From Dudresnaya verticillata (taxonomy: Eukaryota), in assembly GCA_977862235.1 (NCBI GenBank), contig OZ374557.1, positions 1,550,001 through 1,614,000 on the forward strand: a DNA stretch of 64,000 bases, in the 5' to 3' direction. Shown here piece after piece: positions 1,535 to 35,823 of the stretch. Each line of letters begins with the position of its first letter. Position 1 is the first letter of the stretch. Position numbers and translations under genes: made by a program. Below the pieces are notes generated by a model. That model was not told the DNA's origin, searched no databases, and saw only the letters and a list, made by a program, of their open reading frames with translations.

Positions 1535-1633
1535 GAGAGTCCCCAGAACGACTGGCGGTAGGCACATTTCTAGCTGGTCAAAAGGACAAGACCAAGGACT
1601 GGAGAAGACTGCAGTTCAGGAATCAAGATCGCT

Positions 1634-4271: not shown

Positions 4272-4291
4272 ATACACGCTCTGGTATTCGG

Positions 4292-5341
4292 ATGAATACG
4301 ATTGGGCATGCTGCCACGGATCATGTAGCATTCGTCGCAGGCTCCAGTGCAGGATCTCAGATGACGGCTGCCATGGTGTCGGAATTCGCGTGGAGCAACC
4401 GTACGACGGCTTCTCGGAATTCTCAGTGGAATGCATGGCTTGAGTTCTGTAGCTCAGAAAACCGAGCTCCGTTACCGGTCTCGGAAGGTAGTATCCTGGC
4501 CTTTATCGGATGGATGCGACTCGAGCGCGAGGCTGGTCGACGCAAAGTTAGCAGCGTCTCGCTTCAGCAATACCTTTCGGCCGTTCGACAGATGCACTTG
4601 CTCTTCACCGGTACTGCTCTGCCGCCGCTGCCTTTCGTCTCCCATCTTGTACGTGCTTATCGAACTTGGGAGGAGTCAAACTTCCCTCTGGAGACGGTTC
4701 GCTGCGGACTCTCTGCCGATAAGGTCCAACGCATATGGGCCTTAGGAATGGGTACAGCATCGCAGAGCCTTCTACGAGACTGCGCAGTTTGCGTGTTTGC
4801 CTACTGCTTTAACGGCCTTCGCGAGAGCTCCGTGATTACTTTGAAGACCGAAACATTCTGGTTCGAAAACACTACGCTGTACGCTAGAGCTAGTGTTTGG
4901 AAGGGTCGCACAGTCAGTCTAGAACCGCTACTCTCCTACCACCGGGTCGGAGACGTCTGTTCTCCTCTTGACCTTTTCAACCGCTGGAAGTCCAGCAGAG
5001 GTTCTCATCCACGCTTCTTCGGTCTTCCAGGCGAACTTTCTCAGCCGCAGAGCCAGACCCTCTCTCGTGCCCTTACGCGGGTATTGGACTTGGTTGCAAT
5101 TCGGCCACCACCCGATGGAAAGTATACATCGCATTCCCTTCGCATCGGTGCGCACCCGGAGCAGGTTCTGGTTGGAATTCCGCTAGAGGTCCGCATGGCT
5201 CGATTCGGATGGGGTCCTGACAGTGCTTCTATGGCGTCCCTGTACTTTGACAGGACAATAGGGCCTACCGCTGCGTCGTTCTGGTTTTTCGGAACCGGCA
5301 TTACTGCCGGCACCGCTTCCATTCCGCCGCCGTTGGCGTAG
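4292..5341 (+). CDS. Tyrosine recombinase (phage-integrase fold) of the YR retrotransposon
   Basis: Open frame with catalytic set GLRES (R), WKGR (K), HSLR (HxxR), FGW (W) and SLY (Y), plus an N-terminal core-binding region (QYLSAVRQMH). Confidence 0.92.
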   Translation: MNTIGHAATDHVAFVAGSSAGSQMTAAMVSEFAWSNRTTASRNSQWNAWLEFCSSENRAPLPVSEGSILAFIGWMRLEREAGRRKVSSVSLQQYLSAVRQMHLLFTGTALPPLPFVSHLVRAYRTWEESNFPLETVRCGLSADKVQRIWALGMGTASQSLLRDCAVCVFAYCFNGLRESSVITLKTETFWFENTTLYARASVWKGRTVSLEPLLSYHRVGDVCSPLDLFNRWKSSRGSHPRFFGLPGELSQPQSQTLSRALTRVLDLVAIRPPPDGKYTSHSLRIGAHPEQVLVGIPLEVRMARFGWGPDSASMASLYFDRTIGPTAASFWFFGTGITAGTASIPPPLA

Positions 5342-5366
5342 CGAAAACTCGGGGGCCTCGTTCTCT

Positions 5367-5385
5367 CCGCCCCATGTTGGGGCGG
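5367..5385 (+). other. GC-rich hairpin followed by a T-rich tract, between the YR stop and the right repeat
   Basis: CCGCCCCA-TGT-TGGGGCGG then TGTTTTTG. Function unknown. Confidence 0.5.
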
Positions 5386-5402
5386 TGTTTTTGTTGGGGT
5401 TT

Positions 5403-5595
5403 CGTGAAGTGTAGACTCGTTTATACGCATGAAACGTACTCAATGAATAGCGAGGGCGATCCTGTAAGAGGATGCTACACGATGCGTGCGTGTCAAATTT
5501 CCGGGAAAAAAGGCGCGCTTTTCTTGGACGCAACTTCGTCATAAGAGTGGTCGACGCTATGCCCCCGGAGAAATCTGGGCATGCCTCTCTCTTTC
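5403..5595 (+). repeat. Right direct terminal repeat of the YR retrotransposon
   Basis: Copy of 1341-1534. Confidence 0.95.
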
Positions 5596-13997: not shown

Positions 13998-14004
13998 GAC
14001 CCCC

Positions 14005-14768
14005 TGTAGTATCTCTAAAGCACCACCGCATACGGCAGCCAAACCAGATCTCAAGAAGACCACAAAGACCTGACGGATTTCACCAAAAACTGGCCAGAAC
14101 GTAGAAGGGACCTGCGCGCCGGTAGGAATCGTGGTAGAGCGGGAGCGCGCAGACGAAGTCGTGACCAGAATCTGTGATGAGGACAGAAAATGGCCAAGTC
14201 GGGGGTTCAGTTGCTAACTTTACTCCCAACCTCTGGCGGGGTGGCTTCGTACCCTTTTCGGCTAAGCCGTGGTATGTGGCCAGCTAAGTAGTCCCAAAAT
14301 CGCCCATCTGAGCTAATCTAGAGCTGTTCTACAGTTAGTGGCCCAATTTACTCCTGTCGGCCATAATATCTACTTGTGTTCCGGCGTCGGGCCAATGTAA
14401 GGCCCTTGCGAGACTAAACCAAGTACTTTTGCGTTAATGGTTGGCCCTGCGAGTTAGATTTTCACTTGATTTTTCCACTGTCTTCGCTTTGATTCACCGT
14501 GCGGCCAAATCCAATTTCAATTTGTGTCTGGCCGCAAATCGGATCATGCGTGTACAACGGGCCACGTGGTGCGCTTCGGTGTCGTAGGTGGCCACGTGTG
14601 AGCCACGTGTACAATCGGTGGCCACGTTTCATTCTTGCGCGCGCTCGCTGCTGTCCGCGCGCCGACGTCACAACTTCATTGGCCCAGTGTCTTCGTTTGG
14701 TTGGGCCGATCGTACAGTTGGACCGTCGAGTTGCTTCCTTACGGTGGCCCCCTTGCTGTTGCACCACA
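14005..14768 (-). repeat. Element B 3' LTR
   Basis: TGTAGT...CACCACA ends. Matches 26441-27203. Contains clustered GCCACGT(G) G-box-like sites at ~14560-14630. Confidence 0.95.
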
Positions 14769-14980
14769 GAGACCCTTCGCAAGCGCGGACTCCTGGCCGC
14801 GTGGGTGTCATCTGGCCATATCAGCGCGCGTGATCCGCGCCGCTACCCCTCTCCCTGCACCCGGTCATCACCATCTTGTTCACACCGACCGTTTTCCCTT
14901 ACCGACACTTGCCAACAACATCGTGCGGACGTCCTTGCTTCGCTTTCCAACTTGCGCGCGCCTGGCCATCTCCTTTCCCC

Positions 14981-17900
14981 ATGGCAGGTGGTCCAGCGAA
15001 AACACGCCCGCGACACACAGTGTCGGCCAAGAAGAAGACCACGCGGCTGCATTCGTCATCCAGTTCGTCGTCCACACCGCCGTCGAGCGATGAAGAAGTT
15101 GGCGTGGCCAAAGTGAAGGCGATGCCGAAGAAGTCTGGCCAGAGTTCGAGGCCGCGCGCGATGAAGGCGCCCAGGGCGTCTTCTGTCCCAGCACCCAAGA
15201 CACCAAGTCGCGCATCTAACGATCCGCTGGCTGCTGTGAAGACCACCGCGGTGGAGGAGCCCATGAAGACTGGCCAGGAGAAGAGTGTCGCTGCGTCTGC
15301 AACTCCGGCCATAGTGCAAGCTACGCCCGACGTGGGCACCTACAAGTTGATGCAGGAGATTGCGGCCAGTCAAAAGAGGCACGAGCCTGAGGAGCAGCAA
15401 CTAGCCAGCCTCAAGAAGAAGCTTGTCGATACACAGAAGGCCAAGTTGGCGCGCAGCGTGACCATTGTCGCATCCTGCTCATCGGAGGAGGCAGCGGCGG
15501 CAATACGCCAACTTGGAGGGGCAATCCGAATGCATCTTCTGTCGTCGGCCCGTTTGCAAAAGAGACGCCGAAAGCTGGCCAGAAGGTAGCAGAAGCGCCT
15601 GAGAAAGGGTTGGTGCAGGCCGAAGTGAAGCGCCTTGAGGCGAAGAATTTGGTGCCGGTCGCAAGCACTACAGTGCCAACGGCCGTTAATCCTACTCCAT
15701 CGCCGTTAGCCACCGCTATTGAGAAGGCTGTGATTGCAATCTCACGTCCGTTGGTTACTCAAGCCACCACTGCGGCCGCGGAAGAAGTAACTGCGGCTCA
15801 ACCCGATTCCGACTCGGCCATGGTATTCGTGCCCGCTCGAGAAGAACCACTGGCCAGTAACGAAGAGTCGCTTGGAAAGGCTGAGAAGACTGGACCATAG
15901 CTAAAAGAAGGAGATAAGTCAGTGCAGAAGACTTCGGAAGCTTTGGCCAATATTCCCGTGCCGCGTAAGACATCGCATTCAGCTACGCCGAGTGCTTCAA
16001 GAAAGTCTACCCCGCGGCTGCGCTCTGTCCCTTCGCCATTCATGCCGACAGCAGCGAGCCGGGCGCGTCAACTGGCCAAGCTAAATATTGGGAAGGCAGC
16101 AGTGCAAGGTCCCCCTGCAAAGCAGCAGCGGTTGCCAAGCAAGGAAATCGGCCAGTCGTCTCGAGCAGACGTTATCGATTTTGATGCCTCTACACCTATT
16201 CCTCCGGCCAACCCTATGTCCGGTGGCGATCGGCGACAGTTTTTGGCTTTGCTTCGCGACGCCGATGATCTTAAAGCTGGCCCGTCTTCTTCTACGCCTT
16301 CTGCAGGCTTGCCGCCCAAGTCATCTGGCCTGAGTGAAGATCCTCGCGTGAAGGAAGTTATCCCGCGCGAAGAGACTTTGGATATCACCAAGGCTGGCCA
16401 GGAGATCCCAAGCTCAAGTGCTGGCCCTTCTGTTCCTACGCATCCGGACCGTGAGCCAGCTTCGCACACTCGTGCTGCTGTGTCTTTCCGTCCCGACCTC
16501 CCACCGGGCCTAGAAGATCAGGATAGCCCCGAGTTGGTTTTGGACGAACGTTTGCCTGGGACTTCTATCTGGCCAAAGTTACCTCGAGTGGATATACCTT
16601 ACACCGAGTGGTGGCCGATAGTGACAAGCTGGACATGATTCGCGTACGGGAAAGCCATTGCCCTCTCAACGAGTCGTGGCACCAATATCGCGAGTCGCAT
16701 GAAAATGGCCATCTCTTTGGATCCCTTCGGAGATCGAGTGCGACCGTGCTTTCTTGCTGTGCGCGCGGGATGTGATGTTCGTCCACGGAGCTTGTTTGAT
16801 GTTCAATGGAAATTCCAGTGTGTACCCTCATACTTCCACATGGTATTACGCCTTCCCTCACTCGTGGATGCTTGAGCGCTGGGAGCAGACGACCGTGCGA
16901 AACGCGAAAATGGCCAGTACAGACCTTCGTCGCATCATAGCGCCGGGAGATTGGTTGGCCCATCGCACGGGTGGTAGCTATGTCTGCCACGGCAACACTC
17001 GCGGCCAGGAAGGGTTTTGGCCCCCTGTCGAATACTTCCCCAGCGTTCCCGCTTTTCTGTGGAAGGAGTGGCTATCGAGAGGTGAAGCTTGCCTACTTAG
17101 CCCTCTGGCCTATTATTTTCTTGGCCAGTATCGTCGTCACGCGTTCGACCCCACTTGGTTTGAGTGCTTCCAGGAAACCGCTGTCGTTGAGTTACACGAA
17201 TGGCCAGCATCTTCTTTCGCTACGAAGCGCAGGCGTCGAAGAGGATGTGGTGGATGTCTTCCCAGGCCATTGCTCGACGAATTGAAGTTGTGAAAGACCT
17301 TACTTATGTCCCCGTCAGCCAGGAGCACAAGCATCAATTCAACCATGTGTATTGGCCAGATATTGTCTCGTTGTATGAGAAGTTGGCCGATACAGTGTTG
17401 CACCGTGACCATTTGTTTCAACGCAGAGCTGGCCACGATGAGAAGTATTGCGGCTTCGACTGGAACAAGCATGTGACTTTTCGGCATGGTAGTAGCTTTG
17501 GAGTTGAAGTGGCCAATAACGCTTCCATCGTGCGGGCCAGCATCCTGCATCCTCATCCGCATGTGGTGGCCGAACGTTCCGTGCGCGGCCATGTTAACCA
17601 AATGTCTTTGGCCAACATCTTGCGGCAGCTGAACCAGAACATTGGCCGTCTCAGCGACATGAAGCGTCGCCAGACTGTCGAGCTCAACCGCCTTCGTCAT
17701 CATGTTGATGACGTTGATCATGCGTTGATCATGTTGATGACGTTGAAGGAGTTATCCGGCGGGGCGAAGAGCGATTGGCCAATGTTAGGAGTCAAAAGGA
17801 TCATATCGAGGCTGAGCTGCGAAACGCGAAGGAGTCACTGGCCAGATGCAATGAACAAGGTCTGGAGTGGAAGAGGCAGCGCGACCACTGGTGCGATGAA

Positions 17901-18400
17901 GCTCATAACCAACAGGCCTTACTTGACTTGGAGCGCAACCGTGGATTTCATCAGCTGGCCAGTTTGCGTGCAGCTTATGCACCGCCGGTCTTTGGCCAGA
18001 TGCCTCAGTTTCCTCTGCCCTCCCTGCCAACGCCTGCGCCGCCTCCAACCGTGCCACAATATCCTGGGGTCTCAGTGGCACCGGCCACAACCTCCACGTC
18101 GTCTCATGCTGGTGACATCTCTGGCCATCCGCGCGCGCCGTCTCGACCGGCCGATTATCAGCCAGAGCCAATCCGTCCGGTGGTGTTGGCTCCGCCTACT
18201 CCTGTGGCCAATGTTGTTCAACCTGGCCTTGTTCCTGTTAGTTTGGCTCTGCCGATCACTTTGCCCTTCGTGACGCCGCCAACCGTTCCTGCGACGGCCC
18301 ACGTGCTCCTACGAAAGCGCCTCGCGCACCTTCACAGTCAAGGAGCAGAGAGCCCAATTCTTCGGGTTCTCCTCGCTCACCAAGTCCCTATGGCCGTTAG
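14981..18400 (+). pseudogene. Antisense extra ORF of element B (~1100 codons, unknown function, frameshifted)
   Basis: Chain of abutting + strand ORFs (14876-15589, 15610-15900, 15922-16638, 16754-17293, 17200-18273, 17775-18593). They join into a basic/disordered N-terminus, a W/H/Y-rich globular region, a coiled coil and a Pro-rich C-terminus. End is approximate. Confidence 0.8.
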
Positions 18401-19222
18401 TTTTCAAGGTATTGGATTAGTAGTTGGCCAGTTCGTCTTGTTATCTTCTGCTGTCCAATGCGTTGTTGTTAGTCTTGTGATTTCTTGTGTCTTGTGTTTG
18501 TGTTATCAAAAGTTGGTGGCCAAGTTCGTGCTTCTAAGATTGGACAGCCCCCCTTGTGTTTGGGGGATATTTAGTCTGTCCGGCCATTCTTGAGTTAAAA
18601 TGCACTGGTTGCCTTCAAACATTTTGTGTGTTATCGTGGCCAGTTACCAGTCAAGTGGGGCCGTATGGCCTCTGTTCGTCCGGGTCAGTAGGTCTTGCTT
18701 CTGGCCAATGCTCATGAGCACAGATTCTTCAAGTCACCAAAGGAGGAGTAACGGCCAGCTATTGTCTTTGTCTCATCGACTTCAAGCACCCCATCTGGCC
18801 ATGTTTTTTCTCTGGCCAATTTCCTTCTTGTTGTCAGTAGGGGGTTATCGTTGTCACCCCTGTCTCCTCACTCTGCGCAAGTCCCCGCTTCGGCGCACGA
18901 CGCGTGGGAATTAGAGTTACCTGGAGGAGGCAGCAAAAGATGAGACAGTTTCTACCATCTGTTTACACCCGCTGAATTTCGGCGTACACCGGGAGATTTG
19001 CTGGCCGCAATTTTTCTCACACAATGATTGGCCAGCTTACATTATTCTGGGTTAACCCTAAACACCGCCGTCGGGTTTTTGGTGAAGAGGTTCCAGCCGG
19101 GGTATTTTGTCACTCAGCATCTCCTTCCTTCGTCCACGACCGCCCCGCATCTCCGTCTTCACACGTTTTTGGCCAGACTCCGACTCCTCTCGCTTGACTC
19201 CCTGGCCATGTAGAGGTTGACC

Positions 19223-22200
19223 TTACGAACTGTTTTGGCCCGGCGTAGCTCGGCGCTTCATGCGCGCGAAGAAGCGGGATACCAACGTGGCCGGCAGAAG
19301 AGCCTCGGGCTCCCAAGTTCGGCCATAATACCCATACCAGTTGACCTGAAACCACCGCTGGCCAGTAGAATCCTCACGCATATCCGTGAGTTTGTCAATG
19401 ACATATTCCTCGGCCGTCGCAGCAACTCCTTCTGGAAGGGTTCCCAAAGCGGCGCTGGTCATTGTCTCCGTAGCCATCGGTTGCCCTTGTGGCCTCTGCG
19501 CGGCTACTACTCGGTCCGAACTAACACGCTCCAGTTGGCCAGCCCTGTCTATGACGAACGTACGGCCATCATTGCTTATAATTTTGTATGGCCCCTGGGC
19601 ATGATGCTCTAGTTTCTTTGGCTGCTTTTCTGGGTTGCCTAGGAAGACAAAACCCCCTGCGGCCAGCCTCTTATTCCCCGTCCTGACCGAGCGGTCAAAG
19701 TCCCTCTTGTAGCGCGCCTGTGTGCGGGTTAAACTGGCCGAAGCCTTGTCTACGGCCTCTGATAATCGGCGTAAAAATGCCTCTTTCACCGTCCCAGTTG
19801 GTTTTGGCCGGTTTAACGTAGCTTCAAGTGAAAATGGGCTCGGGGCCGACTGAGAACCAAGTCAAACGGTGTGGTTCCAGTGGAGCGATGTATATGGCAA
19901 TTATAAGCATACGTCAATGCCGCAGCGTACTCATCCCAGTCATTCTGATGTTCATTCACGTAGCTCCTCAGCATTGCGGCCAATGTTCGATTGTACCTTT
20001 CCACGTGGCCATTCTTTTGTGGATGATATGTCGTTGTGAAGATGTTGGCCACCTGTAATTGTCGGCAGACTGCCTGGAAGAACTTGGCCGCAAAATGTCC
20101 ACCGTTGTCGGTAAGAACTGTCTTTAGCGCGCCGTACTTGAAAATCCAGTGAACGCAAAACGCCGTGGCCACATTATAGGCGGTTATCTTCGTCAAAGGC
20201 ACCACCTGAGTCAGCTTCGAGAAGCGGCATGTAATGCCTAATATGTGCTCGAACCCCTTCTTAGTTCTGGGGGGCGGCCCAAGAAGATCCATGGCCACAC
20301 TCTCTAATGGTTGACTGGCCGGGAAGAGCTGTAACTTCGATGTATGTCGGAGACGACGAATCCGGTTTTTGGCGCAATGGCCACAGTTTCGAACCGTTGC
20401 CAGGCAATCAGCGGCCATGTGCGGCCAATAGTATGTCCGTCGAAGAGTCTGATACATTACATTCTGGCCGGAGTGACCTGGCAGAACGGTATGGTGACAC
20501 AACCGAAGAATCCGGCCATGTAGCAAGGCTGGAAGCACTATTTGTTTCTGGCCATCTGTCGGACATCGTCTGTAGAGGACCCCATCGACCCCTTCGAAGA
20601 AGAGATGTTTCTTGGATCGTCCCAGGCCAGCTCGCGTGGCGAGAATTGTCTGACAGAAGTCATCGCTTTTCTGGCCTTCTATTATTTCAGTCTGTGTCAC
20701 TGGCGTGGGGAGAGTCTCTGCTGTCTCTCCTTCCATTTGTGCACGACTGAAGACTTCCGCCCGGCCCTAGTCCGTATAATAGGCCATCAAGTGTTCCTCT
20801 TCCCGTGCGTCGACTCCATCGACTTGTTCTCTCCTGCCGGCCATATTAATTACTCGATTTATCCGGGCACGCGTGGTCGTGAGAATAGAGGGGGTACCGT
20901 CCAATACAGGTACAGTATCATCTATAGGCCGTGCATCTCCGCTCTCTTGCGGGCCCACCAAGCGGGACAAGGCGTCGGGGATTTGGTTATTGCGCCCTGG
21001 TTTATACTCAATCACAAAGTCGAACTCGGCCAAACGTAATCTCCATCTTGTAAGACAGCCAGACGAATCAGTGAGCGACATCAACCAAAGGAGGGAATCA
21101 TGGTCCGTGCGTACTGTGAACTTCGTACCTTCAACATATGGCTGTAATGATGTAATGGCCCACACCACAGACAGACACTCGCGCTCAGTGGCCGAATACT
21201 TTTTCTCGGCCGACGTCAGGGAACGATACCGATATCCCACGGGATAGTACGACTTGTCCTCTTGTTCTTGGAGCAGGACGCATTCAATCTGATATGCGCT
21301 GGTATCAGTTTCAATCACATATGGCCGTCCATATCGCGGTAAGGCCAGAATCGGTGGCGAGACCAGAGCAGCCTTCAGTTTCTCGAAGCTATGGCTTTTT
21401 TACTCTGTTGGCCGTTCGAAGTCCGGCTCGGCGTCCTCGCACAACATGCGCGTAAGTGGCCGTGCAATCGTGGAGTATTTAGCCACAAACCTTTGGTAGA
21501 TATTGCAAGCTCCCAAGAAGGAACGAAGTTCCGTAAGGGATCCTGAAAACGCGCCCTCTTTTATTTCCTTGGTACCCTGCATGGCCATACTTAGTTTTCC
21601 GGGAGTCACTACATGACCCAGATAATCCACTTTGGCCTGAAAGAAGGAACACTTCTTCAACTTCAACGTAATACCGGCCGCCTTCAACAAGGTTAGCACC
21701 TCGTCTAGATGGCCAAGATGATCCTCCACACTTTTGGAGAACACGATGACATCGTCCAGATAGATGAGGCATATCTGCCATCGGACGCCAGAGAGAACTA
21801 TGTCAAGCGCGCGCTGAAATGTGGCCGGTGCGTTCTTGAAGCCAAATGGCATTCGATTGTACCTGAATGTTCCCAAGTGAGAGGTGAAGGCCGTCTTATC
21901 CTTGTCCTCTTCGGCCACTGGTATTTGCCAATATCCGGAGTTGCAGTCCAAGGTTGAAAACACGGCCGCATCCCCAAGTGATTCTATACAATCATCCATG
22001 CGCGGGAGTGGATATGCGTCACCAACTGTCTTCGCATTGAGTCGGCGGTACTCGACGCAGAAACGAACGGTGCCGTCCTTTTTCGGTACCATCACAATTG
22101 GCGAGGCCCATTCTCCGTGCGATGGCTATATCACTCCGGCCTACAACTGCTTCCTAACGTCGGCCTCTGCGATCGCGCGTAGCGCTGGTCCCTGTCGGTA

Positions 22201-23660
22201 GGGTATCGCTCTTATTGGCCGGGTTACATCTTCGAAGTCTATCCGATGTTCGGTGGCCATGATCTGTCCCAGGGAACCGTCCCACATTGCACTGTGTTTC
22301 TCTAGAATGGCCATTATCTTTTCGCGTTGTTTCTTGTCCGGGATATGATCAAGCTTGATCTTATCCCGCCATTCTTCCGCCTCTTGTGTGGGTACCTTCG
22401 GTTCCGAAGGCTTACCTCTTTCCTGGCCAGATTCTTCTACTTCTACTTGACCACTATCCTGATCCACAAGTGGAGTGAGCCCAAGTACACTGGCCATACT
22501 CTCCACACTCCGTCGGTGTGGCGTCAGGATTTCCATGGGGTGGCGGACAGCATAGCCGCCCACGGTACCCTTTGGCAGTAAGACACCCTTTCTTCCCCAG
22601 TTGGCCATCATTTCCTGGAATGGTTTCTGCGGTCGAACGTCGGCAAATCCATTGGCCATCCGCGTATGGTGCCGGAAGCTCAAAGAATGTTTGGGCTCCA
22701 ACACGCATAAACCTCGGCCATCACTGCGAACAGACACGGTAGCCTGTTGACCTGCCCGTATGGTCAGACCTTTCGTCAAGCTTACAGTTTCTGCGTAGTG
22801 ACGCGGGGTCTTGCGTTCCACACTGGCCGAATTGGAATTCCCCTGCGCCGGCCCCCTTCGCAGCGGTTGGCGCTGCCCCCAGAGCCCTCGAGGTGCTGTC
22901 GGGTAAGAAGGGAAGGACGTCACCGCGCACTAACTGCACGATCTGTCCACGGCACTGGATACTATCCACGTGCGTGTTCAGAAATTCCGTACCCAACAAG
23001 ACGGGTACGGCAAAGCGAAGGTCGGCGATAAGGAACGGCACTCGATATGAATGACGGCCTAAGCGCATGACCAAGGAAACGGCCCCTCGAAAATGAATCG
23101 GCCGTTGGTTGGCATCCACCGGAAGAGGTGGGCACGTCAATGTGAGTGCGTTGTCCTTCCCATTGGGAGGCAACGCATCCAACCGTATGATGTTCCACCC
23201 CGAGCATGTGTCCAATGCAACTGGCCCGGGTAACAAGGCAGACATTGTGAGGCCAAATGAACCCGAGAGGGTATAGTTGGCCCCACCCAGGATGCAGACC
23301 ATACCTTGTGATGAAACACTGGCCAGCTGGGAATCTTCTTTCGGTTCTTCGTTCGATGATTTGCGACCACTCGTTGGCAAAGACCCCCCATCTTTTGTGG
23401 TGGGGGTGGATGATGATGATGTAGTGTGGCCAGACCCCCAGGGCTGTGACCGCACCAGACCGTTAGATGAAAATGGGCAGTGGTAGGTCAAATCATGGGT
23501 TGACCAAACCTGGATTGGCGTTGCCAAACGCCATGCAATGGCTAACAAAGAAGAAAAATGGAGATAACTAACAGGAAACAACTTAACTGAAACGAGACTA
23601 GCCGGTTTTGGGACGTGTACGGGCAACGGGATCACGACCGAAGATCTCGGCCCGACTAGT
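19223..23660 (-). pseudogene. pol: Element B pol (PR, dUTPase-like domain, RT, RNase H, integrase, chromodomain)
   Basis: LDTCSG, PKKDGTVRFCVEYRRLN, YLDD, ECLSVVW, HSG, CGHC, MDLLGP, TDNG, ERYNR, GPY and chromodomain motifs. Several stops. Confidence 0.94.
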
Positions 23661-25964
23661 TTCCCGATGCCAACGAAGAGTTATCGGACTCCACATCGGC
23701 CACCACCTCATCCATTGGATGTTCTTGCGTAGTGACTAACGTGGCCTGCCGATTCCCAGGGTTCAAAGATGATTGTTGCGGCCGTCGGAGTATTCCCTGA
23801 GGGGAAGGACGTCCCCTTCCATCCCCAAAGGAGACATTGATCGGGGCGGTAGCCTTGACCTTGGCCGGCATACTGCTCAGGGTGCCATCTAGCGTACTCA
23901 TCTCGGAAGCGGACGTTACGTATGGCAAACAAGTTCCTGATGGCCATTGGTAAGTGCACACAAGTGTACAAATCATGGCCCCATTCGCGACAACCCCAAC
24001 AACGGGCACTGGTTTTGTCACTGCGTAGCATAATAGCGACTTTGGCCAGCTCATCCGACGTCAACGTCGGAGGTTTCCGGAGTGGGTCCGGGGTGTTACC
24101 CCCGGATACCGACCCTGCCATTGACGGTGTGGTCGGCGCCATTGTCGGTGTTTGCTGAGAGCCATTCTGGCCAGGGGTAATGGCCATAACCGGTATGGTG
24201 TCAAACGGATCATCATAGTTGGCCGCTATATCCTCGGGCTCCGCCTGCCAAGAAGGTTCAGCCGCAAGGGTAGGGATGACCAACGCGCTTCGAGAACTGG
24301 CCGACTTTGTTTTGGGACGTGCAGAAGCCAAGTAGGCTCTGTGTGTCTCCCCCTCGGCGATGGCGATACGGCGCACCGTCGAGAAGTCCTTCTCCTCCGG
24401 CCGCATCTGGATACGCTTCTCAGCTACGGCAGAACGAGTGGTCGAAGGTAAACCCCTCACATAATGGTTGATCAGGGTATTCTCCGAGAGGACATCGGCG
24501 CACGACAGCGCCGCGTCCCCTAACCGGTCAGCGAATTCCGCTTCTGTCTTGGCATCTTTCTGTTTGTTTCTGGCCACTTTGTCGAACGCGGCGGCCAGAA
24601 CATCTTCGGTGCAGTAGCGCTTGATGAGAGCGTGGACTAAGTGTGGGCAGCTAATTTGCGAAAATCCACTCATTGGAAAGATGGATTGTACTGACCGTAT
24701 ACCACGGGACATCCGGCTAGAATAGAACCTCTTCGCATCACCGGCCGTAAAGAAGGACAGAAGACGCAAAGCGGCCCCTTCATGGACGTTCGTCCCATCA
24801 CAGGCATACTTGAACTCCTTGAGGAAGGACAGGAGCTCGATCGGACGTCGGCCGTCAAATGGGTTCATCTGCGGGAACAGGTTCCGGATTTGACGAGTCA
24901 TCCATAGTCATCGTTGGCCGAGTATCCAAAAGGCGATGGGTCCGGTAATCAACCACCCGCCGGAAGGGTTCTTGGAGGGTCTTGAGAGGCTCTAGACCTG
25001 GTTCCATTGGCCCCATCATCGCGACAGGAAGACCTGTTTCATCCAACTGGCCAGTGTATCCCATGGAAGGTTCCCCTGCATCAACGGGCCCCGAAGGTCC
25101 AACTAAAGCAGGCCGTGGGGCGGCACCACTGTTCTGAGTGTTGCCCTCTTGCGGTGCTACCCCTTATACAGGAATATTTGGCCGGGCCTTGTCAGGATGC
25201 GACTAGGCCGATATCTCATCTTGCAACTGGTCCAGTTGCTTCTGCACTGCTGCTACCAGTTCAACGACCTGTGGTGCCAAGACTGGTTGATTGGCCGGTG
25301 TTATCCGAGCGGACTCGGACCTTGTCTGGCCAGGGAGGGCAGGGAGTTTTACCTTCCCGTCGGAAGCGAAAACGGCCGCCTCAACCTTTTCCAGACTCTC
25401 ATCATAACGTTCCGCTATGGCCGTAAGTGCACCGTCTAGGATGACGGAGTGTATCTCCTGGCGAAGCTGTTGGTCCCTAATCAGAGCCGTGGTGGACATC
25501 TTGACTTGCATCTCGCCAAACTGGTTCTTCACCTCTTGTTGCCACTCGGCTGTACGTCGCTTATACTGGTAGAACTCTTGCCGACCCAACCAGACGTCGT
25601 GTTCTGGCTGGGAATAATCATCAACCGGGGGTGGACGAAGATTATCAGGAGCGCCCAGTGGAGTCATCGGCGGCGCTGTGGCGGGCGGTGGCGTGCGAAA
25701 CGGCGAAACCGGAGGGGCAGCCCGCGGCGGTACCTCATTACGGACGGCACCCGCCATGGAAGAAGACCCTGCTCGTCCAACTGTCGAAGGAATGAACTGG
25801 CCAGTCGATAACGGGACCGGAGGGGCTGGTGGCGGCCCCGATAACGGTGGATATAGGCCAGGAGCAGGTGGTGGGCCTATGGGAGCGCCCAACGTAGAGG
25901 GAGCCGGAGCGGAGCCTTGTAAGGGCTGCGGTTGTCCGCCTGCCGGTGAAGAAGAAGAAGACAT
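23656..25964 (-). pseudogene. gag: Element B gag
   Basis: Pro-rich N-terminus, capsid-like FDGRRPIELLSFL..., Zn knuckle CWGCREWGHDLYTC, ending GGGAAAC-TAG. Frameshifted. Confidence 0.88.
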
Positions 25965-26421
25965 GACGAAGTACGTCGGAGACTGATTGGCCAGATACTT
26001 CTAGCGATTCGTGGCCACCCCGTGGCCGACGTGTGCGAAGTGGCCTTGCTGGGAACCACACTGTCGTGTGCAAAACAAAGGGGTGGGAACGGACGATTAA
26101 GAGCTACTAGTCCCTATATCAAGGGCCGGACACTGCCGTGTGCAAAGCTCCCTGTGCTGGGAACGAACCAGTGAGTGTGCAAAGTGGCCACCCTGGGAAC
26201 GAACCAAGCGACGTGTATCTTGCCTATGGCCTAGACTACGGCCACAGAACCGGGTTGAAGTAGACTGACAATCAGATTGCGAAATCGGGTAGTTACTAAC
26301 CCCCAATCTGCAACTTGCGGTGTTTGGCCACCACTGCAGCGAGGAAGACACTGGCCGTCGTCGACTACGGCCAGCTACTCGAGTCTTCTAACGGAGAAGT
26401 AGGCCGAAATCACAACTGATC

Positions 26422-26439
26422 TTCTAGGTCGGGAGACCA
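26422..26439 (-). promoter_or_regulatory. Primer-binding site of B, inferred tRNA-Tyr; same PBS type in A (35800-35817), C (38168-38185), E (52467-52484) and F (54831-54848)
   Basis: TGGTCTCCCGACCTAGAA is complementary to a tRNA ending ...CTAGG-TCGGGAG-A-CCA. C1:G72 with A73 is the eukaryotic tRNA-Tyr signature, and yeast tRNA-Tyr ends CGGGAGACCA. The LTR-PBS spacer is 1 nt in B/E/F and 5-6 nt in A/C. Confidence 0.85.
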
Positions 26440-26440
26440 G

Positions 26441-27203
26441 TGTAGTATCTCTAAAGCACCACCGCGTACGGCAGCCAAACGAGACCCCAAGAATACCACA
26501 AAGACCTGACGGATTTCACCACAAACTGGCCAGAACGTAGAAGGGACCTGCGCGCCGGTAGCAAGCGTGGCAAAGCGGGAGCGCGCAGACGAAGTCGTGG
26601 CCAGAAGCTGTGATGAGGACAGAAAATGGCCAAGTCGGGGGTTCAGTTGCTAACTTTACTCCCAACCTCTGGCGGGACGGCTTCGTACCCTTTTCGGCTA
26701 AGCCGTGGTATGTGGCCCGCTAAGTAGTCCCAAAATCGCCCATCTGAGCTAATCTAGAGCTGTTCTACAGTTAGTGGCCGAGTTTACTCCTGTCGGCCAT
26801 AATATCTACTTGTGTTCCGGCGTCGGGCCATTGTAAGGCCCTTGCGAGACTAAACCAAGTACTTGTGCGTTAATGGTTGGCCCTGCGAATTAGATTTCAC
26901 TTGATTTTTCCACTGTCTTCGCTTTGATTCACCGTGCGGCCAAATCCAATTTCAATTTGTGTCTGGCCGCAAATCGGATCATGCGTGTACAGCGGGCCAA
27001 GTGGTGCGCTTCGGTGTCGTAGGTGGCCACGTGTGAGCCACGTGTACAATCGGTGGCCACGTTTCATACTTGCGCGCGCTCACCGCCGTCCGCGCGCCGA
27101 CGTCACGACTTCATTGGCCAGGCGTCTTCGTTTGGTTGGGCCGATCGTACAGTTGGCCCGTCGAGTTGCTTCCTTTCGGTGGCCCCCTTGCCGTTGCACC
27201 ACA
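26441..27203 (-). repeat. Element B 5' LTR
   Basis: Matches 14005-14768 and is adjacent to the PBS. Confidence 0.95.
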
Positions 27204-28696
27204 CCCCCCTCCTTAAATGGCGACACGTCCTCGTGCGCCCGCTTCGGTTTTCGTCCACACCGTATCGGTTTCGTTCCATTGACACCATAACGGCTTCGTA
27301 ACCGGCACCTGTGCTCGGGTGTGGTCAAGGTCCCCGTTTTGGTACAATCTGCCCCGCGCGTATTCCCAAAGCCAAAGTCCATCACACCAAAATGGAGTGT
27401 GGATCCACCGGTGGTTCGCCGTGTCAATGACCGAAGGACTCCAATCGGATTCGCAAATAATCCCTTGCGGAGTGCGCTGTAGTGCCCGTGAACAGTATGA
27501 GGAAACCATGCCGAAATTTGAACTTGGTCTCCCGCTCCACTTCACTTCCATCCAGTGTCGCGGTGTGGACACAACACACAACCCATAATGGCGTTTGAGC
27601 GAAACATATTCTACAGACGCCCGGGGTCCTTTGGCGGAGCCAGTACCGAAACATACTCCAATACGGTGTGCCATGCAGTGGCTGTTGACAACATGGGGGA
27701 AGCTATGCCCGATTTTTCGGTAATTGCTCACATATGGCGCGAAACGGTGTCACAACATCCCAATGACATCGTGTGCGAAGCCTAAAGCTTGTTCCTTTCC
27801 GACTCTTGGACGCGACTCTTCTTACACGGGCGGCACCGTTTCGGCGGAATATATTAATGTCAATATATCAACATTAATATATTAATGTTAAGTAAGCTGT
27901 TCTCCACATAAATATATTAATGTTAAGAAAAGACATAAAATTAATCTCAACATTAATATATTAACCCGAGCTCCGGTGGTGTGGAAATCCGAAAAAACGG
28001 TGCTTGAAGCGACGGTGGTAGACCGGAATCGGACTCCGGAAGGGTACGCGCACAGTCCCCGAGACGCGGAAACTTCCGGGTATCGTCTCCCTCGATACCA
28101 GAACGGTGTATGCGGCCGTGGTAACTGGCCGGAGCTATTTGCCAGGGCTCTACACTCCAAAAAAGCGGCGGCGCGCCCGATGCGGCAAGTCGGAACGTGA
28201 GAGTACATGCACAAGTGCACCTGTTTTGGAGCCAGCGTGCGCAAACGACCGCAAGCCTCCACTCCCTGTCCGTGTTTGCAGCGCAATGCCCCAAATTGCA
28301 CAAGCAGAGTGGGAACTGGGCTGGTATCAGTTTGGAACCAAGGACGAGCATACCAATATGGAGTGAAACCCCTTGGGCAAGGGCTCGGTGACCGTGAGTC
28401 CAGGGGTCATGCCGAATTTTACGGCATGCAACACCATCGGGGCGGAAATGGCGGGCAAAGCGCACGGCGATATGACGGTGTCGCGTAGCAGTTGTCTCGA
28501 CACGCTTCCCACTCCAATACCGGTATTTGTGACACGATAGTACCCCACATTACCGAAACGGTGCACACGACCTTGGCGCCCCGCGGGAAATGGTCTCCAG
28601 GGTCATTCCACTGCGAACACCACTCAGGGCACGTTCCGTATGCCTTATTAGGGACGGACAACACCGTAAAGGAGCGGACCGCTATCTCAATTCCGG

Positions 28697-31600
28697 TTAG
28701 GTGTGTGTGACTCGCGTCAGTTTCCGCCGACGCCGCGCAGATGCTGCGGCAGGGCGTTTGCGACTCCAATAGCGGCGAATAAAATTCTGTGGCAACTCCT
28801 CGGCGGGTTCATACGTATCCTGGTCTGGTGGGTAGCCGTACCAACGCACCTTGTCGGTCATGTCCGTGGGTTCTTCGCGGTGTCCCACGATCTGCTCGAT
28901 AATATACTCCGTGTCGGCGTCATTTGTCTCCGGAACGGGAGCAGGAATACCGCCTGGCGTTTGGGGCGTTACAGTAATACCACCTGGTGTTTGGGGTACT
29001 ACTGTGGTGCCTCCCGCCTGCTGGGGTACTGTAACGTCCACGTCGGTGTGTGGCGTAACCGGCGGAGCCAATAGCGGCGCCGGTTGCACGGGAACTACAA
29101 TTGGTACCTTAGTGATGCGATCGATGCTGATGGGAATCAGGACGCCATCCTTCTTGATAGTGACTACAGTATCCGTTGCGGTGTGCACCTCGTAGGGGCC
29201 CGTCGATCTTGGGAGGAGCTTCTTCATTTGCTCCGCAAATTCACCGACGTGGTCAGGGCCTTGACCCAATCGGACGCGTTCCTTTCGTTCGGTGGGTCGT
29301 AGATTACGCGGTGGGCGATCTACGTAGACTTGGTCGCCACCGCAAACCACCGGTCGGAAACGCACCTTACGGTCAAAGAGGGCCTTAGACTTCAACTGGG
29401 CTGTAGTCAGTTTGGTCTGCGCCTTCTGTAGGGCATAGCGCAAACGCCGCATGGTTCCCCTCTTTTGGAGCACGGGCGTCATACGCCCCTCCGTAACGGT
29501 TTCTTCCAACTCCATAGGGGTGCCACGCACAATAATATCCGATGGGTGTCGAGTTAACACTAAGTCAAAGGGAGTAGTATCCGTAATCCGGTGTATCTAC
29601 ATATTATAGGAGTAGGTCAACGGCTGTAGGTATAAATCCCAATCGGTGTGGTGATCCCCGACGTAGTGTCGAAGGCGCTGCGCGATGGTTTTGTTAAACC
29701 GCTAGGCTTGTCCGTTGGTTTGCGGGTGGTAGGCAGCGGTCAGCCAATGCCGCACTCCGAGTAGGGCACAGACAGCGTCGAAGAACTTCGCCGTGAACTG
29801 TCTTCTATTGTCGGTGAGTACAAATTTTGGTGCGCCATACGCATACACCCAATGGTCTAAAAATGCGTTCGCCACCACGACGGCTGTAATCGTCCGTAAC
29901 GGAATGCACCGTGTTAGTTTAGAAACCCGATCGGTGATGACCAGTACAAAGACGTATCCCCGTTTGGTTTTCGACAGCGGGCCCAGTATGTCCGTAGCGA
30001 CAAACTCCAGTGGGCCACTGGCGGGAAATAGCTTCATGAACTTCTGATGCTTAAACCGCGTGCCCTTGGTTTTGACGCGTGAGCGGCAACTCCGAACGGT
30101 CTCGAATACATCGTTAGCCATATGTGGCCAATAGTAGTCTCTCCGTAAGGTGTAGTACATCTTAATTCCACCAGAGTGTCCCGACATCAGGATGTAGTGG
30201 GCAAGATACAGGACCCTGCCGCGCATCTGTTGCGGTACCACGTTTTGGAGTGCACCGTCGAGGGCAGACTTGCGAACAAGAAACCCATGTCGGTCGTAGT
30301 CAAATTGTGATCCTGGGGATCCCACCGATTCGGCTTTAAGCTTGCAGAAAGTATCCGTTGCTTGCGCGGCTATGAACTCCTCACGGGTAAGGGTCTCATT
30401 TCGCATATCCTCTTGTTGGATGACCGTTTGCCGGAGTGGAGTGGGTGGTACTGTATCCTTTTCAGGCGTAGTATCCGTTTCGGTGGCTCCACTTTCAACG
30501 CCTAGGACAGGGCTGCTTGCGGCATCAGGCTGCTAGATCTGTTTCCAATTGGTTAGTCGCACACCATGTGGTACTACACCATTAGGAGTCGATTACATAA
30601 CGAAGCAAGGCACTTCTTCATCCAACTCAGCTTTGTCAGCACCACCTGTTCGGAGTCTTGACATACCGTCTGCGAGTTGGTGCTTGATACCAGGGCGGTA
30701 CTGTACTTCGAACTCAAATTCCGATAGGCGTAGGCGCCATCTTGCTAAGCGTCCAGACGCATCGGCTAAACTCAATATCCAGCGTAATGCGTCGTGATGC
30801 GTACGGAGTATAAACTTTTCACCATAAAGGTAGGGGCGTAGCGTTAGCATACTCCAAACTACAGCAAGGGACTCCTTTTCAGTGGTTGTGTAACTCTTCT
30901 CCACATCGGTTAGACTTCGGCTGCAGTAACCCACTGGTAGGTTATCTCCACTACGTTGCTCCTGGAGAAGGACACACCCAACTTGGTAATCACAAGCGTC
31001 GGTATCCAACGTATAATTGAAACCATGACGGGGTAAAGCCAATATTGGAGGGGAGATTAAGTGTCTCTTTAACTCCTCAAAGGCGTTAAACTCCGTTTCG
31101 GTGAGAGTTCCAAACTCGAATACCAGACCCTTGCCGGTTTTCTTATTGAGTGGCGAAACAATACGTGAAAAATTGGGAACGAAGCGTCGATAGACGTTAC
31201 ATAATCCTAGAAAAGAGCGCAACTCCATTTGGTCTGTAGGGGGCTTAGCCTCCTTGACGGCGAGAATATTCTTCCGTTCCACTTCCAGTTGGCCCGGGCG
31301 CACTATGTGGCCCAGATACTGTACAGAAGTGTCGAAGAAGGCACACTTCGATAATTTCAGAGTTACCTCTGCGGAACGGAGTAGCGTGGGGACCTCCTTA
31401 AGGTGTTAAAAGTGCTCCGTAACGGTATTTGAATATACAATCACATCATCCAGGTATACTAAGGCAAATTGCCATTTCACCGTGGATAGGATGATGTCAA
31501 CCGCTCGTTGGAAAGTAGCGGGTACGTTCTTGAGCCCAAAAGGCATTCTCCAGAAGCGGTATAATCCATAATGACTGGTGAAGGTAGTTTTGTCACGCTC

Positions 31601-33100
31601 CTCCTCGGGGATCACTACTTGCCAGTAGCCGCTATTACAATCCAGAGTAGTGAATACTGTAGTTTCTCCAAGGGAGTCGATACATTCATCCATCCGGGGT
31701 AAAGGGTATGAATCCCGAACGGTGACAGCGTTAAGACGCCTGTAATCGACAGAAAACCGCATGGAGCCGTCCTTTCTAGGAACGAAGACCACAGAGCTGG
31801 CCCACTCTGAAGCGGATGGCTCGATCACCTTAGCGGACAACATACGATCCACTTCTGCCTTCTCCAGCTCGCGCTGTTTATGTCCTGCCCGATATGGTGC
31901 TTGATATACCGGTTTGGCACCAGGCATTAATTCAATACGGTGTTTCGCGGCTGTTATATTTCCTAACTCGCCGTTCCACATAGTGCTGAACTCCTCGAGG
32001 AGTGTAATCACCGTAGCGCGGAGTTTTTCATCCTTGGCACCAATAAGGATGTTATCTTTCCAGTCGGTGTCAGGGGTTGTAGTTGATTCCGATACGGTGT
32101 TGCCTTTGAATCCATCTTGGGGTGTAGCCTTGCTGCTTTCATTAGGAGGAGTAGGAAAGGAATTAATATGTCCTCCCCCCTCCTTAAATGGAGGTACTCC
32201 GTTAACGGTGAGTATGGCAGAGGGAGCAGCAGTAGCGAGGCCCATGACGGTAGACTTGGGTAACCGCACCGGTTTGGGGGAAAATTAGTCAGCCACACCT
32301 TAAAGGGTTTGTTAGGGATGATATCCATAACCCCGTTAGCCATAAGGGTGAGGTGCTTATGGATGGGTTTGGGATGCTTTTGAAGAAAACACAAACCACC
32401 GGTAGGAGTGGCGACCAATGCAAGGGATTGGGTCATAGGGGGAATAACAAGGGATTGTGCTAGTCGGAGCTTTTGCGATACCGTAGCGGATGAAACAGGG
32501 GGCCCTGAAGAGTAGAAGCACCGTTTTGGAGTGTCTGAGTTGTCCCATTGGCGAAACCGGGGCGTGGTGATGAAAACAACTTTCCGTGTCGGTGGGAGGA
32601 TCGCCTTGACATGGCGAGCAATAAAACTGGTTCCCAGAATACACGGAGCAGCGAGGTTCGCGACCACCAGGAAGTGGACTCGAGTACGCAATTCTCCGAT
32701 ACGGACAAAAAGCTGAATGACACCAAGCGGGCGTATCGACCTATTGGACGCATCCCGTAAAGGTGGACTGGCAGCGGGGCGAATCAAAGACAACCAGTGG
32801 CGTGGAAGCCGTCTGGCGTTAATGAAATTTGGCTCAGCACCAGAATCCAATACGGTGACGAGAGGTAACATGAGGTCATTACTTCTTCCCGCAGTAATCT
32901 GGATTTTATAATTCTGCCGTTGTAGAAAACAGACAGAATCACCGGGTAGTGGAAATTCAAGGGGAATTTCTGGAACAAAATCAAGGGGGTACTCCGTAAT
33001 GGTGGCGGGCTGACAGTCCGGCAAAGCCCGTATTGGTGGGCGTACCACGTCGCATTGAGGAGACGGGGACGCCCTTTCACGTCTCCTGCGACGTTTTCCG
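28697..33100 (-). pseudogene. pol: Element A pol (PR, dUTPase-like domain, RT, RNase H, integrase, chromodomain)
   Basis: LDSGAEPN, YLDD, TDAC, TDILGP, TDN, HPQTNGQ, GPY, chromodomain YIIEQIVGH...VRWYGY...TYEP. Disrupted. Confidence 0.94.
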
Positions 33101-35659: not shown

Positions 35660-35823
35660 GTGTTCTCCTATTCTTAGGTTACCAAAACGGAGTCAACGAG
35701 TGTTTTGCCTTGTCCTGCCTTTACACCAATACGGAGTTGTCACAAAGCTCACCTCCTACCGAAGCGGAGTCCCACGGAAATTCTTCTACCTTGACGGTCT
35801 TCTAGGTTGGGAGACCAAAACGA

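Follow-up and report, generated by a model that had tools for sequence, protein, structure and literature searches.

In bacteria, point mutation has built up short motifs within genes, on both strands, that a dedicated protein reads (DUS/USS, HIP1, Chi); these motifs can bend codon and amino-acid use. In transposable elements, family motifs are described for the VANDALs of Arabidopsis, which are Mutator DNA transposons; according to the accessible part of Hosaka et al. 2017 (PMC5735166), these motifs (YAGTATTAY) are non-palindromic, lie in the same orientation, are mostly non-coding and are amplified in tandem repeats. For VANC21, homodimerisation via a coiled coil is predicted (PMC13547354, accessible part). 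Spm TnpA and Mu transposase are element-encoded, sequence-specific activators of cognate copies (bioRxiv 10.64898/2026.08.24.746577, accessible part).

Long conserved antisense ORFs between pol and the 3' LTR are described for the retrotransposons Grande, RIRE2, Retand (TRP28) and Boty. Their function is given as unknown in PMC7264820 and PMC11963269; nuclear, DNA-binding and regulatory roles were proposed, and some contain SMC-like coiled coils. Retand, from a non-chromovirus plant lineage, carries TRP28 (PF04195), and its family-specific tandem repeats are found in the 3' region only. The accessible parts of both sources (PMC7264820, PMC11963269) report no element-wide motif in these four elements. 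A literature search covering titles and abstract openings, mostly outside subscription journals, returned no description of element-wide family-specific palindromes in retrotransposons.

Structure of element B

The window analyzed here is a stretch of 64,000 nucleotides. Element B (14005–27203, minus strand; 13,199 bp) is a full-length but decayed chromodomain Ty3/Gypsy (Metaviridae-type) LTR retrotransposon, inserted just inside the 3' LTR boundary of element A. It is flanked by a 5-bp target-site duplication, CCCCC (14000–14004 and 27204–27208, no strand assigned), and the insertion site is not TGGCCA. Mimicry of an integrase target site was rejected as an origin of the motif described below, since the duplication is odd-length and the motif symmetry is even.

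The 5' LTR (26441–27203, minus strand, 763 bp, TG...CA ends) and the 3' LTR (14005–14768, minus strand, 764 bp) were 95.5% identical, and their 34 differences showed no CpG-type excess. The PBS (26422–26439, minus strand) starts with TGG one base past the LTR; a similar PBS was present in elements C and D of the window and in the relatives L089 and L090. The gag gene (23708–25964, minus strand) was found in several ORF pieces with ENA relatives at 38–39% identity, one of which gave a weak Retrotrans_gag match. The pol gene (19223–23680, minus strand), interrupted by stops and frameshifts, encoded a protease-like region, RT (21403–22125, minus strand), RNase H, integrase and a C-terminal chromodomain, in this order from RT onwards. 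RVT_1, RT_RNaseH, Integrase_H2C2 and rve were above the Pfam cut-off; Chromo was below it in B (E 0.004) and above it in A and relatives. An antisense ORF in about six pieces is located between pol and the 3' LTR (14981–18593, plus strand). A search of viral contigs gave no relatives. Database matches with a named source were distant animals and Chara; the host may be red-alga-like, which is a guess.

Distribution of the GGCC motif

A total of 225 GGCC, 150 YGGCCR and 75 TGGCCA sites were found in B, while the remaining 50.8 kb of the window contained 191 GGCC and 17 TGGCCA; the dinucleotide-Markov expectation for B was 74.6 GGCC and 4.7 TGGCCA. The preliminary description of this DNA had counted by eye seven TGGCCA in 14005–15000 and ten in 17000–18000, and exact recounting gave the same numbers. 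Its claim of saturation with TGGCCA thus stands in number, but the true unit is GGCC with independent Y/R flank preferences: the flank classes were TGGCCA 75, CGGCCA/TGGCCG 62 and CGGCCG 13, and under an order-4 Markov model 70.7 TGGCCA would be expected.

A GGCC-centred palindrome occurs about every 60 bases through all genes of B, most sites lying within coding DNA. GGCC density per kb was 16.2 in the antisense ORF, 16.3 in pol, 14.2 in gag, 18.0 in intergenic DNA, 25.2 in the 5' UTR, 23.6 in the 5' LTR and 20.9 in the 3' LTR, and all three codon phases were used (15/10/27 in pol); enrichment across LTRs, genes and non-coding DNA in all frames, as described earlier, is borne out by this range of 14.2–25.2. 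The longest GGCC-free gap (380 bp, 25419–25799) corresponds to the Pro-rich N-terminus of gag. The enrichment does largely vanish in Copia (1.3 per kb) and in the internal region of A (2.3 per kb), but A has a palindrome of its own, CCG-N3-CGG. Of the sharp boundaries reported earlier, the right one was confirmed (the best segment ends at 27184, the next GGCC is at 28114), whereas the left one (best segment start 13641) is blurred because the LTR of A itself contains four GGCC. No tandem repeats carrying the motif were found in B, its single 9-bp microrepeat being motif-free.

Synonymous-codon shuffling (2000 shuffles) gave 25.7 ± 3.4 GGCC in pol against 52 observed, 16.3 ± 3.0 in gag against 25, and 27.8 ± 3.2 in the antisense ORF against 50. 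Synonymous opportunities for GGCC were realised at 41–51% in the pol and antisense ORFs of B (52 of 102 in the RT-to-chromodomain ORFs) and at 31% in gag; in six other coding regions the rate was 5–17% (pooled 48/461). The GGCC excess is therefore not explained by dinucleotide or codon use. Motif-driven amino-acid change is not supported, realised and unrealised opportunities being equally lineage-specific (0.41 vs 0.37). Peptides compatible with TGGCCA amounted to 2.07 per 100 amino acids in B vs 0.8–1.4 in 20 relatives, a suggestive, partly circular comparison.

Spacing and symmetry of the motif

Within 15 bp of each other, 8 GGCC pairs were found in B against 41 expected. The observed/expected ratio was 0.12–0.29 up to 15 bp and changed in a step-like manner to 0.8–1.06 from 16 bp. 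Opportunities located 4–15 nt from a realised site were used in 6 of 63 cases, those elsewhere in 120 of 240 (Fisher p 1e-9), and the near-site usage of 10% equals the background rate of other families. The close-pair ratio of GGCC (0.19) was the lowest among 70 four-mer classes (median 1.09), while hairpins in general were not depleted in B (128 vs 111). Helical or nucleosomal periodicity was rejected (z 0.7 at 10.25–10.5 bp). Base-pair covariation between the flanks was absent (85 complementary against 81.3 expected; chi-square p 0.43), as was G-U wobble bias (TGGCCG 30 vs CGGCCA 32).

Short inverted repeats at many spacers are generally in excess in the retrotransposons of this set, which would suit an origin of the pattern as a side effect of base composition, of codon or dipeptide usage, of a reverse-transcriptase error spectrum, of quasi-palindrome correction, of tandem repeats or of an assembly artefact. 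This explanation, to which we assign almost no probability, is already refuted: the excess outlasts the dinucleotide and synonymous-codon controls, the motif is present in all phases and in non-coding DNA outside tandem repeats, its flanks do not covary, a single spacer is used, and independent mutation cannot yield the 15-bp exclusion step.

This arrangement is as expected if selection has favoured sites, free of overlap, for a dimeric protein that binds double-stranded DNA and varies from family to family. The reader would, with good probability, be a symmetric, sequence-specific binder of duplex DNA with a footprint of about 16 bp. Every added non-overlapping site would help a copy, and site-creating point mutations would be fixed over cycles of retrotransposition; a second site inside a footprint would be neutral and would stay at background.

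We judge it improbable that Gag or integrase reads the motif on the RNA or cDNA of the element, where it would serve as a scattered, family-specific signal for packaging or for the pre-integration complex and limit cross-packaging among co-resident families. Against this, the flanks are symmetric and independent, with neither pairing covariation nor wobble bias, and the predicted folding of B is no more stable than that of other elements (mean MFE z −0.94 vs −0.63 to −1.75), although 34 of 56 GGCC sites paired with another GGCC in predicted folds (an uncontrolled count). Gag and integrase are present in every element, so A would need no extra gene; however, gag and pol also occur in motif-free relatives. 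Footprint-like exclusion would equally suit a protein coat, and a mild sense-strand asymmetry of B (GGGCCA 19 vs TGGCCC 5) points the same way, whereas the fixed degenerate 3- or 6-bp spacers of related elements fit duplex recognition better than stem-loops.

Palindromes of related elements

Different families carry different palindromes. The internal region of A, the host of B (27204–35823, minus strand), contained 35 CCG-N3-CGG (4.5 expected), and that of its sister C (38163–43753, plus strand, interrupted in RNase H) contained 34 (3.3 expected), with the spacer in C mostly TWA or CTA. With any other spacer of 0–8 bp, CCG/CGG gave only 0–7 sites in A and C, which share 62–70% nucleotide identity. 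ACTCC, also enriched in A, as well as ACGGA and CCGTA, were rejected as separate A/C motifs, as they largely resolve into CCG-N3-CGG plus flanks.

Four relatives (L086, L087, L089 and L090) come from another assembly, G001. CTC-N6-GAG was found 25 times each in L086 and L087 (about 2.7 expected) and was enriched in gag, pol and the antisense ORF after codon shuffling. L089 has the same motif and L090, more weakly, CAC-N7-GTG, a shift in spacer parity at 72–75% nucleotide identity. Geometries within one clade therefore comprise N0, N3, N6 and N7. The interpretation put forward in the preliminary description is partly supported: a family-specific barcode is borne out, on more evidence than that description had available, the palindromes being distinct for different families, and the antisense product or a host factor is a candidate reader.

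Among 70 distant relatives (those of L001–L080 with at least 4 kb of sequence, from a GC-rich source), three reached a spacer-specific palindrome score of at least 5, with a maximum of 5.6 vs 38.7 for B; the other 67 had no sharp motif, and several of the 70 have intact antisense ORFs. CCC-N3-GGG of the L001 group was rejected as a barcode, being weak and spread over several spacers. No GGCC excess was found in the five closest RT relatives of B (L081–L085; 68–72% identity, short contigs). Window elements D and E scored 4.7 and 3.0, i.e., weak or none.

Host transcription or chromatin factors may instead read the selected sites, each family having recruited its own dimeric host protein for continued expression; we regard this as unlikely. 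A bears its motif without a long antisense ORF, and sharp motifs occur in this window and in G001 and hardly in the GC-rich source of L001–L080, often with intact antisense ORFs there. CCG-N3-CGG, moreover, is similar to the everted CGG half-sites known for zinc-cluster factors, and TAACGG within it is Myb-like. Four unrelated geometries in one clade, the parity shift between L089 and L090 included, would, however, require repeated switching among host factors. Host-factor sites in LTR retrotransposons are placed mainly upstream of the TSS in the accessible part of PMC13547354, unlike the motif sites of B, which are spread evenly through pol.

Conservation of motif bases

Synonymous conservation was measured in the sister pairs A/C and L086/L087, B having no sister copy here. 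Fourfold-site identity inside motif half-sites was 13/16 vs 43% (p 0.002) and 16/22 vs 42% (p 0.005) in A/C, and 11/15 vs 38% (p 0.006) and 12/18 vs 38% (p 0.013) in L086/L087, the p-values being optimistic because sites within one motif are not independent. Motif sites in both pairs thus exceed the synonymous background, as a selected motif was earlier expected to do. Identity of the A/C motif was 0.87–0.93 in half-sites vs 0.53–0.8 in spacer and flanks. Motif pairs at ≤20 bp, pooled over A, C, L086 and L087, numbered 0 vs 5.3 expected. Between the two LTRs of B, the GGCC core was altered at 2 of 18 sites.

Footprint protection would likewise give conserved sites and an exclusion zone if a sequence-specific enzyme or bound protein made the motifs mutational sinks via protection or biased repair, without functional selection. 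Such an idea has been proposed for cyanobacterial HIP1 or Dcm/Vsr sites. One relative has a pol (P0119) with a Dam-like methyltransferase domain at its end (E 6e-6, short of the Pfam cut-off), but no methyltransferase domain was found in B by Pfam search, and positions inside and beside the A/C motif were unprotected. This quite improbable explanation would still need a sequence-specific protein and differs from selection for binding only in the adaptiveness of the latter.

The antisense ORF as a candidate reader

Given a dimeric binder of duplex DNA, the reader is rather likely to be encoded by the element itself, given that motifs differ among co-resident families and are retained or shifted between sister families. 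The best candidate is the antisense ORF product, which would represent an unnamed protein family without Pfam or fold match; its putative role is protection of the integrated copy against silencing by the host, or maintenance of transcription from that copy. On sequence grounds, we propose, at just under an even chance, that the YGGCCR array of B was fixed by selection as putative binding sites of a dimeric protein, most likely its own antisense product, which would coat the copies of the family and keep them active.

The antisense ORF of B comprises a disordered basic N-terminus, a Trp-rich core (~16560–17600), a predicted coiled coil (~17730–17950) and a Pro-rich tail. The core, with a join chosen by eye, matched the antisense family of the clade weakly (7–8 bits, a score reached by 1 of 2000 shuffles) and did not match the L086/L089 pair profile; its second half had no relatives among 1.84 billion representatives and none in G001. 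The family profile matches the antisense strand in many relatives, and the antisense ORF or its tail was present in all four motif-bearing G001 elements. Coiled-coil-like segments were found in B, L087 and L089 and were absent from four motif-poor relatives (crude score, small n).

In A, pol and the 3' LTR are only about 1.5 kb apart, a long antisense ORF is absent, and the 3' ORFs gave no match to the family profile (at least 71 of 1000 shuffles scored as high). Element C is truncated and uninformative on this point. The strong motif of A without a long antisense ORF and the intact antisense ORFs of several relatives without a sharp motif both count against the antisense product as reader. 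A Reb1_MybAD match in the gag of C (E 8e-4, below cut-off) was rejected, being absent from the homologous gag of A.

Pfam gave no hit in 27 members of the antisense family, hence no Pfam DNA-binding domain, and no PF04195 (TRP28) hit in B or the family; no PDB sequence match was found for the antisense protein. The model of the L086 antisense domain (pLDDT 68.8, pTM 0.66) had no Foldseek match in PDB and BFVD (best VIA Z 3.9), a negative covering solved and viral structures, from which neither novelty of the fold nor a lack of relatives follows. The L001 domain model (pLDDT 42) was too low for use. Antisense neighbours in the ESM Atlas were solely low-recognition phage-portal proteins.

More tentatively still, a clade-wide self-recognition code may exist. 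The antisense ORF of each family would encode a predicted dimeric DNA binder of undescribed fold, with specificity drifting quickly (YGGCCR, CCG-N3-CGG, CTC-N6-GAG, CAC-N7-GTG), and synonymous sites would be rewritten into a packed footprint array. If true, this would make it the first case of sequence-specific self-protection among LTR retrotransposons; it would explain the antisense genes and provide a natural library of matched protein–motif pairs. The DNA itself predicts the binding site, symmetry and ~16 bp footprint for each family, and the naturally intact antisense proteins accompanied by a motif (L086 and L089, CTC-N6-GAG) make the function of this ORF a direct binding question. Even with a host factor as reader, synonymous sites of retrotransposon genes would be under strong family-specific selection for putative protein binding, which bears on transposon evasion of silencing, on neutral-site assumptions in dating and on motif-only classification of families.

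Comparison with known systems

The DUS/USS, HIP1 and Chi motifs are chromosome-wide, species-specific and prokaryotic, and 10–50 times sparser than the motif of B, whereas here a single transposon family of a eukaryotic genome is the unit. B resembles Retand/Tat elements in having a long antisense ORF in the stretch from pol to the 3' LTR; unlike Retand, as far as the accessible descriptions go, its clade has a chromodomain, no TRP28 (PF04195) hit and element-wide palindromes. The Spm and Mu regulators, in the accessible account, are transposase-derived and belong to DNA transposons, while no transposase-like features were found in the antisense family.

The VANDAL analogy drawn in the preliminary description holds only in logic. 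Measured against the accessible VANDAL/VANC descriptions, B fails the defining features of that family: it is an LTR retrotransposon and not a Mutator-like DNA transposon, and its motifs are palindromes dispersed by point change in coding DNA with an exclusion zone, not one-orientation non-coding tandem repeats. Searches of Pfam and of solved and viral structures gave no link between the antisense family and VANC, and the LTR pair of B shows no methylation signature or CpG-type hypermutation; VANC-type demethylation is thus not indicated. What B shares with VANDAL/VANC is a family-specific short motif, present at high density and differing between related families.

Palindromic motif of element B

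Element B, a decayed chromodomain Gypsy retrotransposon (14005–27203, minus strand), has LTRs of 764 and 763 bp that differ at 34 positions, a target-site duplication CCCCC and a PBS beginning with TGG. It encodes gag and a pol with RT, RNase H, integrase and chromodomain; an antisense ORF (14981 to ~18593, strand opposite to B), now in about six pieces, lies between pol and the 3' LTR. B is nested in element A, in the company of four other chromodomain-type Gypsy elements and one Copia. No clear polypurine tract was seen beside its 3' LTR (14769–14800). A has a purine run next to its LTR, and the insertion point of B lies within that run.

The 13.2 kb of B contained 75 TGGCCA and 225 GGCC sites, versus 17 and 191 in the remaining 50.8 kb of the window; the dinucleotide model of B predicted 4.7 and 74.6, respectively. 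The TGGCCA counts of the preliminary description (7 in 14005–15000 and 10 in 17000–18000) were exact, and the enrichment it had noted across LTRs, gag, pol, antisense ORF and non-coding DNA was present in all of them, at 14–16 GGCC per kb in the three coding regions and 18–25 in the LTRs, UTR and intergenic DNA. Of the sharp boundaries it had described, the right one was indeed sharp, but the left one was blurred by four GGCC in the LTR of A. The 3' flanking base of the core was A in 56% and G in 25% of cases, and flank preferences on the two sides were mutually independent; thus, TGGCCA is merely the commonest form of YGGCCR. The strongest extension of the motif was CTGGCCAG. Tandem repeats bearing the motif were not found in B. 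The barcode, a family-specific palindrome spread over the whole element, is real, and is more general and better structured than previously described.

When synonymous codons were shuffled with amino acids and codon usage held constant, GGCC still exceeded expectation in pol (52 vs. 25.7 ± 3.4), gag (25 vs. 16.3 ± 3.0) and the antisense ORF (50 vs. 27.8 ± 3.2) of B; the same control revealed no excess in pol of A, C and D. Synonymous GGCC opportunities were realised in 52/102, 24/78 and 50/123 cases in B and in 48/461 cases in six other coding regions. Dinucleotide and codon-shuffle controls ruled out composition and codon use, the explanation that could have undone the initial observation, as the source of the excess in B; that the motifs are in general a by-product of composition is highly improbable. 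The composition check found no CpG depletion in the Gypsy elements of the window, and CpG transitions were not in excess among the differences between the two LTRs of B.

GGCC sites in B were spaced more evenly than random (CV 0.76 vs. 0.92, p 0.003) because of a short-range step in pair distances: observed/expected ratios were 0.12 (4–8 bp), 0.29 (9–12 bp) and 0.19 (13–15 bp), and 0.87, 0.80 and 1.06 in successive bins beyond 15 bp. Among 70 four-mer classes tested, GGCC was the most self-avoiding; the sites had no 10-bp periodicity, and hairpins in general were not depleted in B. Coding opportunities within 15 nt of an existing GGCC were used in 6/63 cases, and elsewhere in 120/240. The near-site rate equals the background rate in other families. 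Such a rate would follow if a further site within the same footprint brought no benefit.

Palindromes of the neighbouring elements

The GGCC excess was missing from A, as described initially, but A was not motif-free: A and C, sister families with 62–70% nucleotide identity, both carry CCG-N3-CGG. Internal regions contained 35 sites in A (27204–35823; 4.5 expected) and 34 in C (38163–43753; 3.3 expected), other spacers yielding 0–7 sites each; an LTR copy of C (43754–44427) had 13 per kb. CCG-N3-CGG was absent from E and Copia. Codon shuffling left the excess in place (z of 6.6 in A and 9.8 in C, compared with 10.7 for TGGCCA in B). Of the 15 sites of A that fall within alignable sequence blocks, C retained 11, against a background of 10–12%, and conservation of motif bases at fourfold-degenerate positions exceeded the synonymous background as well. 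A and C differed in their spacer preference, and ACTCC was additionally enriched in A.

In D and E, any palindrome was weak or absent. Element D (44470–53054) was enriched in RTCGAY and GCAGCGGC, contained 100 mildly self-avoiding copies of TCGA (8 close pairs vs. 14.8) and gave a CCG-N3-CGG/TCC-N5-GGA signal that was weak. An LTR and PPT region of A/C type seem to be joined to the 3' end of D. C-type LTRs, located at 36584–38162, 43754–44468 and 53689–54206, occur on both strands. About 900 bp split one of them; another breaks the RNase H of C, and the sequence after it is 95% similar to the LTR-proximal region of A, an arrangement that suggests nested insertion or rearrangement. An unclassified element (1338–5595) had direct repeats of 197 bp; its 829-aa ORF included a partial RT, and there was no integrase match.

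Relatives from other assemblies

Assembly G001 holds ten eukaryote-type retrotransposon contigs, which are closer relatives (RT 59–72%). Four of them (L086, L087, L089 and L090), binned in this bacterial MAG, are intact, with antisense ORFs intact or cut by the contig end, and carry CTC-N6-GAG, TCT-N8-AGA or CAC-N7-GTG. CTC-N6-GAG occurred 25 times in both L086 and L087 (~2.7 expected), and L089 carried a TCTC-N6-GAGA-like form. The raw count of CAC-N7-GTG in L090 was 17 vs. 2.7, but with codons shuffled this motif did not rank first in the ORFs of L090. Sites in L086 and L087 were conserved in 10/18 and 10/21 cases against 13.5%, and conservation above the synonymous background held at fourfold sites here too. 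Neither a strong motif nor GGCC excess was found in the five contigs nearest to B (L081–L085) or in the 1.2-kb L088.

A spacer-specific palindrome scan scored B at 38.7, C at 22.3, A at 19.0, L086 at 11.1, L087 at 10.7, L089 at 6.5 and L090 at 6.3; 3 of 70 distant metagenome loci (at least 4 kb each) scored at least 5, with a maximum of 5.6. With so few elements bearing a sharp palindrome, the barcode is recurrent but patchy.

The pol of L018 (3000–4628), L089 and L090, up to 1700 aa long, contained a long low-complexity insertion separating the integrase core from the chromodomain. P0119, a chromodomain Gypsy pol in a cluster of seven members (six full length), ended with a Dam-like adenine methyltransferase domain (residues 1314–1382, E 6e-6, just below the Pfam cut-off).

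Candidate reader of the motifs

Symmetric motifs, independent half-sites, a fixed spacer with free middle bases, silent-site conservation and footprint-sized exclusion together make it likely that the motifs are sites of a dimeric double-stranded-DNA-binding protein, selection favouring more non-overlapping sites per copy. Non-adaptive mutational sinks appear quite unlikely, and reading by Gag or integrase on RNA or cDNA unlikely. Co-resident families have different motifs, which favours an element-encoded reader; reading by host factors is somewhat unlikely. The antisense protein, the only accessory gene and one with a fitting layout, was chosen as candidate reader, a tentative assignment with slightly less than an even chance. 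By analogy with VANC and TnpA, it would likely maintain transcription of cognate copies or hold off their silencing. Two facts count against it: the 3' region of A is only 1.5 kb long and has no antisense-family match, and intact antisense ORFs also occur in elements without a barcode.

An antisense ORF that follows pol characterises the clade: a profile grown from nine members matched 30 of 80 metagenome loci, L086 and L089, and 171 database proteins, of which the 120 listed included none that was named or had a Pfam domain. The antisense proteins of L086 (7213–10233, minus strand) and L089 (10134–12692, minus strand) are naturally intact; L001 and L015 are motif-poor elements that also encode such a protein. 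The B core matched the most conserved block of the family at 7–8 bits, equalled by 1 of 2000 shuffles, and is probably homologous by this sequence comparison. Coiled-coil-like segments follow the core in B, L087 and L089, and basic tails end the proteins of L086, L087, L089 and L090; four motif-poor relatives scored lower for coiled coil by a crude measure. The predicted structure of the L086 core was mostly helical (pLDDT 68.8).

Trp-rich ORF remnants lie in sense orientation within the 3' region of A (27216–28549, minus strand). Neither the antisense family nor Pfam gave a significant match, and the remnants may represent a different accessory gene. A 692-aa family member in L059 (5505–7580) lay on the same strand as the RT of that locus and could be part of a second element in the opposite orientation.

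Comparison with known systems

Element-wide palindromic barcodes were described nowhere in the literature searched, which was covered mostly as titles and abstract listings and poorly for subscription journals. Antisense ORFs are also present in Grande, RIRE2 and Retand, and PMC7264820 and PMC11963269 describe them as being of unknown function and possibly DNA-binding; B differs in having a chromodomain and no TRP28. The 9-base motif bound by VANC21 lies, according to PMC5735166, in tandem repeats that share one orientation and occupy non-coding parts of a Mutator element. The VANDAL/VANC analogy drawn initially holds in its logic, but B does not have these features.
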